From Candidatus Latescibacterota bacterium (lineage in GTDB: Bacteria > Latescibacterota > UBA2968 > GCA-2709665), in contig CBDCOX010000002.1 in the NCBI GenBank assembly GCA_965219995.1, forward strand, positions 3,872,001 through 3,936,000: a stretch of DNA of 64,000 nucleotides, in the 5' to 3' direction. Of the stretch, positions 53,969 through 58,805 are shown piece by piece (within the stretch, counting starts at the first letter, position 1; every line of letters begins with the position of its first letter). The notes beneath the pieces are model-generated. The model saw nothing but the letters and a program-made list of their open reading frames with translations. It was not told the origin of the DNA and made no database searches. The translations under genes and the position numbers were made by a program.

Positions 53969-55159
53969 TCAGTCCTTGTACGGATCGAACACGTCAGCAC
54001 CGGCCATAGCCACTCCCAACGGCGTCAACGTGTGCATCACGTCAATACAACCCTCGTGGTTCTCGATCACATCGTCAATGCGGCGATAGCAGTGCGGGCT
54101 TTCGTCCGTTCCGCCACCCCTCAACTGAACGCCCATAGGACGTATCCACTCGTGCATCATATCCATCGAAATCTCACCTGGCTTTTTCAAAATACGGCGC
54201 CCGCGCCTACGCCTCCACTTGCCCGCCGCCCGCGTACGGCTCATCACACGCCCCGCCCCGTGGATCGTCGAATACAACGCCTGCTTGTTCTCGTCAGTAT
54301 CCTTGCCGCGAATGATGTAGCTCTTGTCTCCCATCGAACCTCCAACGAAAGACCACTGACCGGGGAAGGAAGGCGTGGAACCCTTACGGACGACGTGATA
54401 CGTCTGGCCGTTGTGTTCCTCTTCCCACGAAAAGTTGTGGTGATTATTAACAACATCTTCCACCACGCCGCCGATAATGTGGGCCGCCTTGCCACAGACC
54501 CACTTGCGACCCTTCTCCGCCAGAAGACCGGCCAGTTCCATGCACGCCCTGTACTCCCGGCCCAGGTCCGAGTCAACATCCAACAACGCGGGAGCCACGT
54601 GCATACCGTCCTCACCGCCTGCCGCCTTGATGTAATGCGTGGCGATCTTGTGGCCGAAGCCCCGCGAACCGAAGTGAACGCCTACCCACACGCGACCTTC
54701 CTCGTCTTCAAAAACGTCCACGTAATGATTGCCGGAACCCACTGTGCCAAGCTGGCCCTCCGCCAGTCGCTTCAGGGTCTTCGCCGGCTCGATGTCCCAC
54801 GCCGGGTGGCCGCCATGCTCGAAGATCGGATCGTCGACCGTCTCTTTGTTCTTCATACCTATCCCGAACGAGATTTCGTCAAATATCGTATCCATGATCG
54901 CGGCAATGTTCGCCTTCACGTGGCCAAGCGGAGAATCGAGGCGTACGGCCGTGTTGCCGCAACCTATGTCGAAACCAACACCCGATGGAGAAACCTTGTC
55001 AGGATACGCTACAACGCCACCGATGGGCATCGAGTATCCCACGTGATGATCTGCCATAAGGGCAGCGACAGAACCCTTCGTACGGCAGCGGATGATCTGC
55101 TCTACAGCCTCGGGCGTGGGAGGCCCGAACACAAAAACGTCATCGACAATCTGTGCCAT
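53969..55159 (-). CDS. rtcB: RtcB-family RNA ligase
   Basis: MADHH.GY..PIG, VGFDIGCG, GTVGSGNHY, HFGSRG, HHN, RKG and HGAGR motifs. Confidence 0.95.
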   Translation of the reverse strand: MAQIVDDVFVFGPPTPEAVEQIIRCRTKGSVAALMADHHVGYSMPIGGVVAYPDKVSPSGVGFDIGCGNTAVRLDSPLGHVKANIAAIMDTIFDEISFGIGMKNKETVDDPIFEHGGHPAWDIEPAKTLKRLAEGQLGTVGSGNHYVDVFEDEEGRVWVGVHFGSRGFGHKIATHYIKAAGGEDGMHVAPALLDVDSDLGREYRACMELAGLLAEKGRKWVCGKAAHIIGGVVEDVVNNHHNFSWEEEHNGQTYHVVRKGSTPSFPGQWSFVGGSMGDKSYIIRGKDTDENKQALYSTIHGAGRVMSRTRAAGKWRRRRGRRILKKPGEISMDMMHEWIRPMGVQLRGGGTDESPHCYRRIDDVIENHEGCIDVMHTLTPLGVAMAGADVFDPYKD

Positions 55160-55434
55160 CATGATACCTCGTACTCTTCATGAAGTTTATCATCATCCAA
55201 CACTTCGGCTTTGTGGCCGTCTGCAACAAGCCAACTTCCTTCCGGGATTTCACAACTCAGAGTTACGCGGTGATATGATTTGTTGGTTCCGGGAATCAGA
55301 ACCCCTTTGAATTCCCCCACGAAAAACGCCGGCTCCCGCTTCGCAATCCAGTACTCTACCTCGTTCAAATTGCGTCCAAGATACCGGATTGCATCGAACT
55401 TCTTGCGGTAACGCTTTGGGTATTTAACTACAAT
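55159..55434 (-). CDS. Small phage-type hypothetical protein, start codon unclear
   Basis: The frame is open upstream of the TTG at 55368, giving IVVKYPKRYRKKFDAIRYLGRNLNEV...EGSWLV...LHEEYE. It overlaps the rtcB start. Confidence 0.6.
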   Translation of the reverse strand: MVVKYPKRYRKKFDAIRYLGRNLNEVEYWIAKREPAFFVGEFKGVLIPGTNKSYHRVTLSCEIPEGSWLVADGHKAEVLDDDKLHEEYEVS

Positions 55435-55552: not shown

Positions 55553-56335
55553 TCAGAGATTGCCAGATTCGTCTTCACGTGGCTTTTTTTGCTCCCACCA
55601 TCGCTTCGCCGAGGTCAGGCACGCAACCCCTTTTTCGATCAGGTCCAGGGCGGTGTCCGGCCCGGGTCGCTCTTCACGGTAATGCATCAGGACGGACGCA
55701 TAGAATTCACGCATTTGTCGTCTGAGTCCGAGGTCCTCAGGAAGCGCATCGCAAGCCCGGTCCTTCGGAAGTTGCCAGGCCGATATCGGATCGTTCGAAT
55801 GAATCGTCAGCACTTGAAAGAGGACCGGCCATACTTTCGTGCACAGCAGTCTCACGTCCCTCTCGAGCCGTCCGTCCCCGTGATCGAGAAGACCCTTGCG
55901 CAGGAAGTCAGGCGACGGTTCCAGGGCGGCCAACGCTTGGCTGGCGGACGCGACAAGCTGTTCGGCGCTCGCTTCTGCCACCGGCAGGCGGCCGCGGACA
56001 ACCCGATACGTTCCGGGGACCGGGCCGTGATTGTCATCCGCCGCCTGCTGGACTGGAGTCGGGGTGCACTGGATATATCGGAACGGACGGGGGTCGATCA
56101 TTGCTAGATCACGGTGGATCCCCAGACCAAGTGTAAGCGGAAGGCATCCATCTGCATCGAAAGCGGCGGCGTCCAGAAAGAGTTGAAAGTCGATATCGCT
56201 GCATCCCGCGATGAAGCCTCCCTTGACGGCGGAACCGAAAACAATCAGTCCGGCGAACCATCCCTTCGTATGGGAATGGATGACGGCGGCCACCGATTCC
56301 ACGATATCTCCGGCTTCCTCGACCGCAAACTTCAT
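55553..56335 (-). CDS. Nucleotidyltransferase-fold protein
   Basis: FGSAVKGG...SDID (GS...DxD). Start placed at ATG 56335. Confidence 0.75.
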   Translation of the reverse strand: MKFAVEEAGDIVESVAAVIHSHTKGWFAGLIVFGSAVKGGFIAGCSDIDFQLFLDAAAFDADGCLPLTLGLGIHRDLAMIDPRPFRYIQCTPTPVQQAADDNHGPVPGTYRVVRGRLPVAEASAEQLVASASQALAALEPSPDFLRKGLLDHGDGRLERDVRLLCTKVWPVLFQVLTIHSNDPISAWQLPKDRACDALPEDLGLRRQMREFYASVLMHYREERPGPDTALDLIEKGVACLTSAKRWWEQKKPREDESGNL

Positions 56336-56380
56336 TTCAGGGATCAACCTCAATTCGAAAAAAGAAAACCGAAAAATTGG

Positions 56381-56408
56381 CCACAAAAAGCACAAAGGGC
56401 ACAAAAAG
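56381..56408. repeat. CACAAA triplet repeat
   Basis: CCACAAAAAGCACAAAGGGCACAAAAAG, with a 9-nt period like the CAGGAT family. Confidence 0.65.
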
Positions 56409-56640
56409 CATCCGTGCAAAGCGGCGTGTGTCGTAACGCGGCGACCCTGCAGTTATTTCCACACCGGGCCGAAAAGGTCGTCCAAAAGCACTCTTTTCGT
56501 TCACGTCCAGTGACCTGAAGTTTCCTGGAAATCCGATGTTAACTCGCCTTTATCAACTTGCGTATATTCGATTCAACGTCATAGAAGAATGACGAATCAG
56601 AGTCAATTCCTGTCAAAAGGCCATCACTTATCGTGAACAG

Positions 56641-57870
56641 TCATCTGGAGTATGTCCGGGCTTCAATCGCCTCTACGGCTGCCTGATTCACGTAGCTCCG
56701 GTCGTGAAATCGAGCGGCGTATTCGATCGGCGTCACATCTCGATATTTTCGTACAGCTTCATCAGCGGTAAACTTCAGGCCCTTTCGGATGGACGCCCGA
56801 TGGGACGGATCCGCTCCTCTGTCGAGGAGCTCGATAGTTACTCTGTCTTCCTTCCGGCCTTTCTTGACGACACAGTTGAACAGCGGGGTGTGCCCCCCAA
56901 AGCCGTCGGCATCGACGTCGGCCGCCGCGTTCGGGTCCGCGCCGTGTTCGATTGCCCAATCGAAGACCTCATCCTCGTCAAATTCGATCGCCATGTGCAG
57001 GAGCGTAGTCCCGTCCAGCGGTGTACCGTGGAGACCGGTGTCGTCGCCGACACGGAAGTCAGGAGGATAGATGTCGTCATACCCAAACCTGCGGGAAATA
57101 AGTTCGGGGTCCCTGTCAAGATGACGCTCCAGCAAGTCGATCCGCCCAAAATGGAAAGCCAGAGCGGGGGTTTCCGGGAATTCCACGCCACTTTCGGCAA
57201 GGATTTTCAAACACTCGTGTTTTCCGACCGGGTTGCGGCTGTATGTCTCCAGGACCATCGCGGCCGGCGCGGTGAAGTCCCCATCTGCGTCGCAAAGTTC
57301 CCCGCCCAGATCCAGAACCATCTGCAGTCCCTTGCTGTTCAGGGTTTCACAGGCGCCCATCGCGACGCCGCGTTCTACTCGTGCGCCTTTCTTAACCAGC
57401 GCATGAGCGGTTTCGGCATTTCCCTGAAGGATGGCTCGCCCGAAAGCGTGTTGGATCTCGGGACTGCCCAGATCGGCCAGCATCTCCACAATTCCGGTCT
57501 TGCCCAGTTCAGCGGCAAACCCCATCGCGGCGCCCCAGTGTGAACCCCGCCCGCGAGCTTCTTCTGTCAGGAGTTCGGGGTGCTTCCTGACCAGCTCACG
57601 AACGGTTTCCAGGTCTTCGCGAGACACGGCTGCACACAGTCTGGCCGCAAGCAGCAATCTGGGCCAGCTTGCATATCGATACATACGCGCGAGCACGAGT
57701 TGTGCGTCGGCCAGCCTGGCGCTTTCGGGGGAGACGTCCCGTGGATGCAGACTCTCAAAGGCGGAAACGGCCTCGGGATCGCCCGATCGATAGGCGGCCA
57801 GAAGCGATTTTGCCCGCTTCCTGAGGTTCTCGATGTTGGGATTGACGGGAAGACTTTGACGGCGGGGCAT
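56641..57870 (-). CDS. Ankyrin-repeat protein with N-terminal helical domain
   Basis: LP.NPNIENLRKRAKSLL...LADAQLVLARMY...SWPRL, followed by GTTLLH.A, GADPN and GHTPLF. Confidence 0.88.
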   Translation of the reverse strand: MPRRQSLPVNPNIENLRKRAKSLLAAYRSGDPEAVSAFESLHPRDVSPESARLADAQLVLARMYRYASWPRLLLAARLCAAVSREDLETVRELVRKHPELLTEEARGRGSHWGAAMGFAAELGKTGIVEMLADLGSPEIQHAFGRAILQGNAETAHALVKKGARVERGVAMGACETLNSKGLQMVLDLGGELCDADGDFTAPAAMVLETYSRNPVGKHECLKILAESGVEFPETPALAFHFGRIDLLERHLDRDPELISRRFGYDDIYPPDFRVGDDTGLHGTPLDGTTLLHMAIEFDEDEVFDWAIEHGADPNAAADVDADGFGGHTPLFNCVVKKGRKEDRVTIELLDRGADPSHRASIRKGLKFTADEAVRKYRDVTPIEYAARFHDRSYVNQAAVEAIEARTYSR

Positions 57871-58005
57871 AGCAGCCTCCTCTCGCAGAGTCGCCCGGCG
57901 TCCGCATCTTCGGGCAGAAAGAAGGTGCTATCGGAACTTCAGGATCTGGTGAGGTGGGTGGGCTTAGCCCTTTCCGCGGACCGGAGGCTCCCTTTCGAGC
58001 ACGGC
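57871..58005 (-). promoter_or_regulatory. Candidate structured cis-regulatory RNA leader
   Basis: Nested complementary segments, including an anti-SD AGCCTCC that pairs with the RBS GGAGGCT. Confidence 0.6.
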
Positions 58006-58009
58006 AGTT

Positions 58010-58038
58010 AAAATAACCATAACCGGGCCCCATGGCAA
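58010..58038 (-). promoter_or_regulatory. Sigma70-like promoter
   Basis: TTGCCA-17 nt-TATTTT on the minus strand, immediately before the structured leader. Confidence 0.55.
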
Positions 58039-58189
58039 GCCGGCTCTTTGAGTATCTCCGGCAGGAAGGTTAAACGTACGCTGTTTCGGCGGCTTCCAGA
58101 TAATCAAGGCCTCGCGGGCATTCTAACACCTGGTGCAAGGACGCCGCCAGGAATAACGACGGCGTACACGAAGGAAGCGCCCGGCTGTT

Positions 58190-58468
58190 TTATACCAACG
58201 CGATGCGCAGTTGCCGGCCGAGAGCCCTTGCAGCGCGGTCCAGTGTCCGCAGGGTTACCGAAGCATTGGAGGCGTCGAGCAAACGGTCCAGCGCCGATCG
58301 GCTGGTTTGCATACGCCTCGCCATCTCGGACTTGGACAGCTTGTGTTCCTTCATGAACTGGCTCAACTGAAACGCAATCACGCGTTTTGCTGCCGTCGCT
58401 TCTGATTCACTGAGGAGACCCTCTTCCTCGAGGAACTCATCGAAATTGCTGCCGAAGTGTTTTCTCAT
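58190..58468 (-). CDS. XRE/HTH antitoxin-like protein (orphan)
   Basis: HFGSNFDEFLEEEG...KRVIAFQL...SKSEMARRM.TSRS.LDRLLD. Confidence 0.88.
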   Translation of the reverse strand: MRKHFGSNFDEFLEEEGLLSESEATAAKRVIAFQLSQFMKEHKLSKSEMARRMQTSRSALDRLLDASNASVTLRTLDRAARALGRQLRIALV

Positions 58469-58518
58469 CTCGCCTCCCATAACGTCATGAGCCCAACTTG
58501 TCACACGAAGAGTGTTTC

Positions 58519-58805
58519 TCACAGGAAGTCGCGCAATGCCAGCAGGTTTTCGATCTCCGCGAATGGCTGACCGTCGCCGGGTTCTCTGCCTTGCCGATTG
58601 ACCCAGATTCCCCTGATTCCGGCCTCTTGCGCTCCGGCGATGTCTTTATTGAGATTGTCTCCGACCATCAATGTCTGGTCGGGGCCGGCATCCGCAAGCC
58701 GGAGCGCATGCTCGAAAAAACGGGGATCCTGAGCGCGACGGGTTTTTCGAGAACGATCGTCTCGTCAAGATCGAACAGGATCGTTCTCACTGCGTCCTGG
58801 CTCAT
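58519..58805 (-). pseudogene. HAD hydrolase with internal deletion and frameshift
   Basis: MSQDAVRTILFDLDET in one frame joins DPRFF...MVGDNLNKDIAGAQEAGIRGIWVNR in another. The middle of the protein is missing. Confidence 0.85.

Follow-up and report, generated by a model that had tools for sequence, protein, structure and literature searches.

A candidate structured leader RNA and putative translational switch ahead of genes for ankyrin-repeat proteins with a shared N-terminal domain

The SAM-II, preQ1-II, and guanidine-III riboswitches control translation by burying the Shine-Dalgarno (SD) sequence in a pseudoknotted fold, and are compact single pseudoknots of 40-80 nucleotides (nt). In the ZTP (pfl) riboswitch (RF01750), two folded sub-domains separated by a variable linker are joined by a pseudoknot, directly ahead of the regulated gene. 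The autoregulatory leaders of ribosomal-protein and threonyl-tRNA synthetase genes hide the start site; the encoded proteins are known RNA binders and the leaders mimic their main RNA target. RNA thermometers, such as FourU and ROSE, lay a U-rich strand on the SD through A-U and U-G pairs, and are short and poorly conserved in sequence. A leader that resembles each of these in part is described here. It is on the minus strand of a 64,000-nt stretch of DNA from Candidatus Latescibacterota bacterium (assembly GCA_965219995.1, contig CBDCOX010000002.1, positions 3,872,001 to 3,936,000; this whole stretch is hereafter the window, and all positions are those of the window), directly upstream of a gene encoding an ankyrin-repeat protein. 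The leader is very probably a conserved structured cis-acting RNA, and it is likely that it controls translation through access to the SD. With a probability of about 0.5, it is an uncatalogued translational switch for genes that start with a shared domain of ~85 amino acids (aa), which is mostly followed by ankyrin repeats.

The leader is a motif of the SD-sequestering kind, like the translational riboswitches and the autoregulatory leaders, and is listed in none of the catalogues examined. It is distinguished by its nearly exclusive association with a single protein domain, whose function is unknown, and by its many copies per genome. An earlier note on this DNA, made from the sequence alone, could not assign the leader to a named RNA family, and this stands, there being no match in Rfam 15 within 57871-58010 at expectation values (E) up to 10, or, with E up to 1, in six leaders taken as diverse representatives. 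Literature searches on ankyrin-linked riboswitch candidates and on structured RNA motifs found no description of it. In the motif-discovery papers PMC5737381 and PMC11109978, the terms ankyrin and Acidobacteri- are absent from the main texts; the supplements could list the motif under another name.

With the ZTP riboswitch, the leader shares the two sub-domains, the variable linker, the pseudoknot, and the placement ahead of the gene; however, it has no Rfam match, its conserved bases are others, its genes are unrelated to purine or folate metabolism, and its SD is inside the stem of the 3′ sub-domain. Burial of the SD in a pseudoknotted fold is held in common with SAM-II, preQ1-II, and guanidine-III, whereas the leader is ~135 nt long, has five helices and a second pseudoknot, and does not match their models. 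As in the ribosomal-protein and threonyl-tRNA synthetase leaders, one protein family has its start site hidden, and a single factor could set all the genes that carry the leader in a genome, of which there are up to 16, but the domain here is without a known RNA-binding fold and the motif spans several phyla. The U-rich strand on the SD is thermometer-like; unlike in FourU and ROSE, a distant domain of P1, P2, and a pseudoknot is conserved and covarying, as is the P3 contact, which sets the leader apart from the thermometers.

The proposed structure has two halves. Hairpins P1 and P2 make up the 5′ half, together with a pseudoknot, PKa, in which the P1 loop pairs with the bases that follow P2. 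The 3′ half is an extended stem-loop of P5 with P4 as its cap, and here a pyrimidine tract lies on the SD and the start codon. A further pseudoknot, P3, in which GUCCGC pairs with GCGGAC in the P4 loop, ties both halves together across a variable linker. The features of the leader, from 5′ to 3′, are as follows.

57871-58003, minus strand: whole leader RNA motif, ~135 nt (about 133), from the predicted transcription start to the start codon, as matched by covariance model R1.
58000-57997 (GCUC) with 57990-57987 (GAGC), minus strand: hairpin P1, loop GAAAGG, from fitted alignment A3.
57991-57993, minus strand: 5′ side of PKa, AGG in the P1 loop, the partner being the bases 3′ of P2.
57976-57981, minus strand: 5′ strand of pseudoknot P3, GUCCGC, pairing with GCGGAC (57900-57905) inside the P4 loop.
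57971-57975, minus strand: unpaired conserved junction GGAAA from P3 to P2, invariant in the pattern-selected set by construction.
57960-57970, minus strand: hairpin P2, GGGC (57970-57967), loop UAA, GCCC (57963-57960).
57952-57958, minus strand: 3′ side of PKa, family register CC at 57958-57957, genus alternative CCU at 57954-57952.
57932-57951, minus strand: linker from the 5′ domain to the 3′ stem-loop, variable in length and sequence between loci.
57917-57931, minus strand: 5′ strand of P5, the anti-SD strand AUAGCACCUUCUUUC, from minimum-free-energy and consensus folds.
57893-57915, minus strand: hairpin P4 capping P5, GCCCG (57915-57911) with CGGGC (57897-57893), the loop holding the 3′ strand of P3.
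57869-57884, minus strand: 3′ strand of P5, including the SD GGAGG (57880-57876) and the A and U of the start codon.

Support for this structure comes from the comparison of leaders between loci. The source of covariance model R1 is an unfitted MAFFT alignment of 114 leaders (A2); the model contains the four nested helices P1, P2, P4, and P5, the crossing pairings P3 and PKa being kept out. Alignment A3 consists of 94 leaders fitted to R1 (94 matches from 100 sources), their loci having been picked by a core pattern, and alignment A6 of 34 distinct leaders that model searches, and not the pattern, had identified, all from one class with related members. In A2, 87.6 % of cells are paired compared with 83.2 % in shuffles, and compensatory changes are present at 21 of 37 pairs. 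The corresponding values are 91.0 %, 81.9 %, and 30 of 38 pairs in A3, and 89.2 %, 79.3 %, and 31 of 38 pairs in A6; for all three alignments, none of 500 shuffles was as high. In A3, the conserved cis-regulatory RNA that the earlier note proposed shows the covariation between leaders that it called for. When the partners in A3 are slid by 1-3 columns, pairing falls to 42-49 %. A mutual-information scan without a given structure places the proposed pairs on top, PKa included, and both P3 and PKa covary although neither was in the model used for alignment. Pairs of U with G are frequent (58 UG at one P5 pair); common U-G pairs suit the gene's strand only, and the structure therefore belongs to the RNA. 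The R1 match to the window extends over 57865-58015 (100.8 bits, E 3.6e-26).

The individual helices are supported to different extents. For P1, compensatory changes are found at all four pairs and 96.8 % of cells are paired in A3 (94.1 % in the non-pattern set), and its pairs are among the top mutual-information pairs. The earlier note had placed a hairpin near CTCGAAAGGG; a hairpin is present there, although in a different register, that of P1. The hairpin that it saw in GGGCTAAGCCC (57970-57960) is P2, with GGGC/GCCC paired in 100 % of cells and compensatory changes at four of four pairs, and its pairing of GTCCGC (57981-57976) with GCGGAC (57905-57900) is P3. All cells of P3 are paired in A3, with G-C changed to A-U in three sequences; in A6, 99 % are paired and three of six pairs have compensatory changes. 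P4 has compensatory changes at five of five pairs, with 97.8 % of cells paired, its strongest covarying pair being UA in 49 leaders and CG in 34. For P5, 13 of 14 family pairs in A3 have compensatory changes; in the window, 57931-57917 pairs with 57884-57869, the outer six pairs being shifted by one relative to the model and C57875 bulged. The key pair of PKa in A3 is AU in 48, GC in 27, and CG in 5, and in A6 five of five PKa pairs have compensatory changes. Within the junction, the base following GCGG is variable in the non-pattern set and AAGG is retained.

Comparison of orthologues of the encoded protein also supports the leader. Eight loci in the same genus encode full-length relatives of 85-90 % identity, with one locus each at 66 % and 60 %, and three at 52-54 %. 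When 330 nt upstream of each are aligned, similarity runs from just past the −10 box to the ATG in 12 of the 13 loci, including loci with proteins of 52-54 % identity. In this set, A-U replaces the terminal G-C pair of GUCCGC/GCGGAC in three loci and the pair that closes the GGGC hairpin in one. The sole orthologue without the leader is L013 (G051:C5, 52 % identity), which has an unrelated upstream sequence that contains N and an SD region like those of L012 and L014. It may represent a natural loss of the motif.

That a conserved, structured, cis-acting leader hides the ribosome-binding site, as had been claimed in the earlier note, is borne out by the covarying P5 over the SD. The strand proposed to hide it is another matter: the partner of the SD is the pyrimidine-rich tract CCUUCUUUC (57925-57917), within the 15-bp P5 helix, rather than AGCCUCC. 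In the fold of the earlier note, AGCCTCC (57989-57983) is the anti-SD strand, paired with GGAGGCT (57880-57874), together with a nested pairing of GGAAAG (57975-57970) with CTTTCT (57921-57916) and a CTCT-GCG-AGAG hairpin (CTCTGCGAGAG, 57890-57880). All of these strings are located on the minus strand where they were placed, and in the window's genome and its genus AGCCUCC is a perfect 7-bp complement. Over the 94 leaders, however, the pairing is present in 60.4 % of cells compared with 61.0 % in shuffles, 447 of 500 of which do as well, and four of the AGCCUCC bases belong to the covarying P1. The GGAAAG/CTTTC pairing is possible in ~90 % of sequences, equal to shuffles, with zero covariation, and the small hairpin has changes that are uncompensated even within the genus and competes with a supported helix. 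In the minimum-free-energy fold, the SD is paired with the pyrimidine tract CACCUUCUUUC and the AGCCUCC pairing is absent. It is very improbable that this earlier fold is the one formed by the leader.

The closed P5 helix would be the resting OFF state of the leader. Opening of the segment from the SD to the AUG would cost 11.8 kcal/mol in the window, with a median of 9.1 over the 94 leaders (computed for nested structures only). A simple reading of such a helix is that it has no effector, the stem-loop damping translation, setting mRNA stability, or opening with temperature, with the 5′ domain as an aid to folding or stability. The many A-U and U-G pairs by which a U-rich strand binds the SD would suit this, as would the computed stability of the closed state and the lack of any alternative structure with comparative support. 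However, a plain hairpin or thermometer has no need of two covarying pseudoknots and a conserved unpaired junction, far from the SD and retained across phyla, and 9-12 kcal/mol is a high opening cost for a thermometer. An element without effector is therefore improbable, if less so than the fold of the earlier note.

Neither of the two candidates examined for an ON structure has comparative support across the family. A GGAAAG/CUUUC helix acting against sequestration would free the SD, yet its frequency equals that of the controls, and both of its sides are conserved for other reasons. The linker as a strand acting against sequestration has a median z of −0.22 and reaches z < −2 in only 12 of 94 leaders, with z ~0 in the window. 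As a separate observation, in L076, L070, L049, L057, L103, and others, mostly acidobacterial, the linker has a GAAGG-type stretch whose sequence complements that of the anti-SD strand (duplex energies of −8 to −11 kcal/mol, z < −3), which could be a lineage-specific anti-sequestering hairpin.

For the translational switch favoured here, the conserved 5′ domain would be the sensor, its occupancy determining through P3 whether ribosomes can open P5. The partner sensed would most likely be a small molecule or ion, making this an orphan riboswitch class; a ligand of this kind is proposed tentatively, at close to even odds. Three features make it somewhat likelier than the alternatives: the unpaired bases conserved in the junction, the presence of two pseudoknots, and the occurrence in several phyla. 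Among the traits of riboswitches are a covarying, structured 5′ leader and an expression platform that gates the SD or a terminator, and these two are found here, with P5 pairing the SD and the AUG.

The spread of the motif was investigated by a pattern scan of one genome per species, using a 24-nt core pattern with 19 fixed bases. At least 120 loci were identified, compared with our own estimate of ~4 chance matches in random sequence. According to record titles, the loci among the matches listed are mostly from Acidobacteriota; others listed are from Actinomycetota (Amycolatopsis, Nonomuraea, Rugosimonospora, and others), Gemmatimonadota, Verrucomicrobiota, Planctomycetota, Chloroflexota, and one alphaproteobacterium. 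Only one pattern locus, L060 from Achromobacter, resembles a chance match. Model R1 has one match in the genome of the window and 28 in five relatives, and in a sample of 151 genomes from the phylum of the window, 58 have at least one copy, to a maximum of 16 in one genome.

The leader travels with the N-terminal domain of the downstream protein; the earlier note had supposed that it travels with the protein family. When a profile of the first ~100 residues was searched within 480 nt downstream of the pattern loci, the domain was found to be encoded at 116 of 120 among the matches listed; of the other four, one is the chance match and three are truncated where the locus ends. Likewise, 28 of 29 R1 matches in six genomes are directly followed by the domain. 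The exception, L167 (G051:C11:44796-44934), is a weak partial match to the model (28.8 bits) in which the 3′ stem-loop with its SD-hiding strand is kept and the 5′ core is absent; no N-terminal domain was detected downstream, and it may be a decayed or divergent copy. In the reverse direction, by comparison of coordinates, 23 of 27 matches to the N-terminal domain in five genomes have the motif directly upstream. Ankyrin repeats are present in 44 of 49 full-length downstream proteins, three of which also have TPR and one Imm1, and the remaining five have LRR, HEAT, or methyltransferase domains, or no Pfam family. Because the domain co-occurs with the motif even where the C-terminus is not of ankyrin type, the motif follows the N-terminal domain and not the repeats. 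No conserved neighbouring genes were identified: of the 68 nearest upstream open frames, 46 were searched against Pfam, and these belong to unrelated families or to none (they are stop-to-stop frames, some of which are surely not genes).

At L174, L179, and L157, the motif is followed by an N-terminal domain whose coding sequence is broken up into two reading frames or short open frames, which suggests frameshifted or decaying paralogues, or assembly errors. In L032, one of the motif-linked proteins, an Imm1 immunity-protein domain (E 8.2e-9) is present in addition to the N-terminal domain and ankyrin repeats. Ankyrin, LRR, HEAT, and TPR repeat proteins are also common as immunity proteins of polymorphic toxin systems, and the Imm1 fusion is a possible lead to the role of the family.

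The linkage brings in autogenous control, a possibility already raised in the earlier note, in which the N-terminal domain would bind the 5′ domains of its own leader and those of its paralogues and lock the SD-hiding helix, so that free protein represses the family. The leader does precede the gene of a candidate binder, as autoregulatory leaders do, which is linkage and not binding. The tie of the motif to the domain rather than to the repeats (116 of 120 and 28 of 29), including proteins with LRR, HEAT, or methyltransferase C-termini, is as this would predict, and an outside pathway is not suggested by any conserved neighbouring gene. The domain also tends to be basic: over 61 copies, it has a median net charge of +4 and an isoelectric point of 9.7, with 41 of 61 at +3 or more, whereas the rest of the protein is acidic (median −12). 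However, eight of the 61 domains are neutral or acidic, including those of the orthologues L012 (−3) and L014 (0), which keep the leader. The domain is only ~30-40 % identical between loci and the RNA is far more alike, a comparison biased by the selection of loci.

The structure of the domain also bears on autogenous control. The feature is:

57616-57858, minus strand: N-terminal domain, aa ~5-85, four helices, the portion of the protein found together with the leader.

It comprises ~85 residues, and its predicted model is confident (predicted local distance difference test, pLDDT, 92). The AlphaFold2 model of the full-length, 409-aa protein (pLDDT 91.6, predicted template modelling score 0.86) is an all-helical solenoid that matches ankyrin-repeat structures, with Pfam Ank families at aa 282-357 (Ank_2 at 45.3 bits compared with a cut-off of 27.3). 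In this model, the N-terminal domain continues straight into the ankyrin solenoid rather than being separate, and the continuity with the solenoid counts against autogenous control. So does the absence of likeness to any solved RNA-binding fold: against solved structures, the domain gave no usable match, the best being E 0.027 by sequence (a designed protein), E 1.2 by Foldseek, and Z 3.9 by VIA-align. A missing structural match is not proof of a new fold and is compatible with RNA binding. On balance, autogenous control is somewhat unlikely and ranks second, after a small-molecule or ion ligand. A slightly more doubtful extension of it would make the leader, together with the N-terminal domain, a self-contained RNA-protein module, in which the domain would be a new RNA-binding fold that recognizes the pseudoknotted 5′ domain and the paralogues (up to 16) would cross-repress.

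In sequence databases, the N-terminal domain of the window protein matches no Pfam or NCBIfam family. Among 61 relatives of the domain, there are weak matches to PF20066 (Glyoxalase_8) in 14 (best E 4.7e-4) and to PF25607 (DUF7939) in six (best E 3.9e-5). Both sets of weak matches cover the same helices; the window's own domain matches neither family, with no match to PF20066 at E up to 0.1, and the function of neither family is known. A profile search returned 10,611 representatives of 50 % identity clusters, 5,668 of them at E up to 1e-10. The domain occupies the N-terminus in nearly all cases and is frequently present as two or three tandem copies, as in L173 and L159, and most of the best 150 profile matches show two or three matched stretches. 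For aa 1-85, the ESM Atlas has unnamed clusters only (best score 0.87), and the 49 matches from a word-index protein search with aa 1-90 are named only 'hypothetical' or 'ankyrin repeat protein'. Searches with PADLOC and NCBIfam gave ankyrin-type matches only, save for a weak one in Amycolatopsis, where aa 12-61 of L047 match the first 58 positions of NCBIfam NF004629 'DNA helicase' (E 6.2e-7). Related domains may therefore head other protein families.

The gene and its putative promoter are located as follows.

58033-58038, minus strand: −35-like hexamer TTGCCA, from the promoter scan.
58010-58015, minus strand: −10-like hexamer TATTTT, from the promoter scan.
56641-57870, minus strand: coding sequence of the ankyrin-repeat protein, 409 aa, from the list of open reading frames, with the ATG at 57870.

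The promoter proposed in the earlier note, TTGCCA-17-TATTTT (58038-58010), holds up as the sole sigma-70-like site that the scan found in 57500-58600, where shuffles give 0.3; no terminator-like site was found. The predicted transcription start, at ~58005-58001, is directly 5′ of P1. Across the 94 aligned leaders, a TAnnnT box ends 5-14 nt upstream of P1 in 82, with a peak at 7-8 nt, and a T/T/G-rich signal is present 38-36 nt upstream of P1, ~23 nt above the TAnnnT box. In a relative, L011, TTGACA-17-TATAAT stands directly before the conserved block. From the placement of the TAnnnT box, it is predicted that the motif starts at the transcript's own 5′ end in most lineages, and in the window the transcription start appears, judging from sequence signals, to be immediately before P1. 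Contigs from RNA libraries (four runs from two studies; relatives 95-99 % alike) cover the leader; such contigs are uninformative on start, strand, and transcription, and stretches that they do not cover carry no meaning.

A number of observations count against a conserved translational switch with this structure and this start. The near-invariant core of the 94-sequence set is there by construction, the loci having been selected by pattern, the non-pattern set is from one class with related members, and the alignments used to count P1, P2, P4, and P5 had been fitted to these helices, so that these counts lean towards the model. Folded alone, the window leader is no more stable than shuffles: the minimum free energy is −50.9 kcal/mol for the 151-nt sequence and averages −51.07 over shuffles (z 0.04), 102 of 200 of which fold at least as well. 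On one sequence alone, the leader would not stand as a finding. PKa is weak in the window, with two G-C pairs in the family register and an A opposite C at the third position; AGG/CCU, four bases further on, is an alternative. Among the GGAAAG/CUUUC and linker pairings examined, there is no alternative ON structure with comparative support. Two RNA-library contigs extend upstream beyond the predicted start, to 58047 and 58106. The leader is missing from some genes that encode the N-terminal domain, among them the orthologue L013 and four of the 27 matches in five genomes. Furthermore, the motif precedes one protein family only, which is unusual for a metabolite riboswitch and suits protein feedback at least as well.

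Upstream of the leader, 58190-58522 on the minus strand encodes a 110-aa Cro/C1-type helix-turn-helix protein (HTH_26, E 6.9e-8). Between this gene and the promoter, and hence upstream of the leader, there is a match to Trp_leader at 58069-58155, which was rejected, being below threshold (21.6 bits compared with a gathering score of 41, E 0.23). Downstream on the same strand are an RtcB RNA ligase gene (E 1.2e-63) and a 288-aa open reading frame with a weak nucleotidyltransferase match (E 0.019), at 53969-55162 and 55553-56419, respectively. These and the other neighbours in the window (RtcB ligase, methyltransferases, sulfotransferase, and XRE-type regulator) have no evident link to the leader.

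If the leader is a translational switch as proposed, it would add to the structured regulatory RNAs a new class that is strongly supported by comparison, present in several phyla of mostly uncultured bacteria and guarding a large protein family of unknown function. It would be either an orphan riboswitch or the mark of a new RNA-binding domain with family-wide feedback. Were the RNA-protein module to be correct, production of the repeat proteins would track the free protein rather than that engaged with protein targets. To our knowledge, almost no work has been done on the ankyrin, LRR, and HEAT repeat proteins that free-living bacteria encode, and a common switch would show that they are regulated together, giving a handle on their function.

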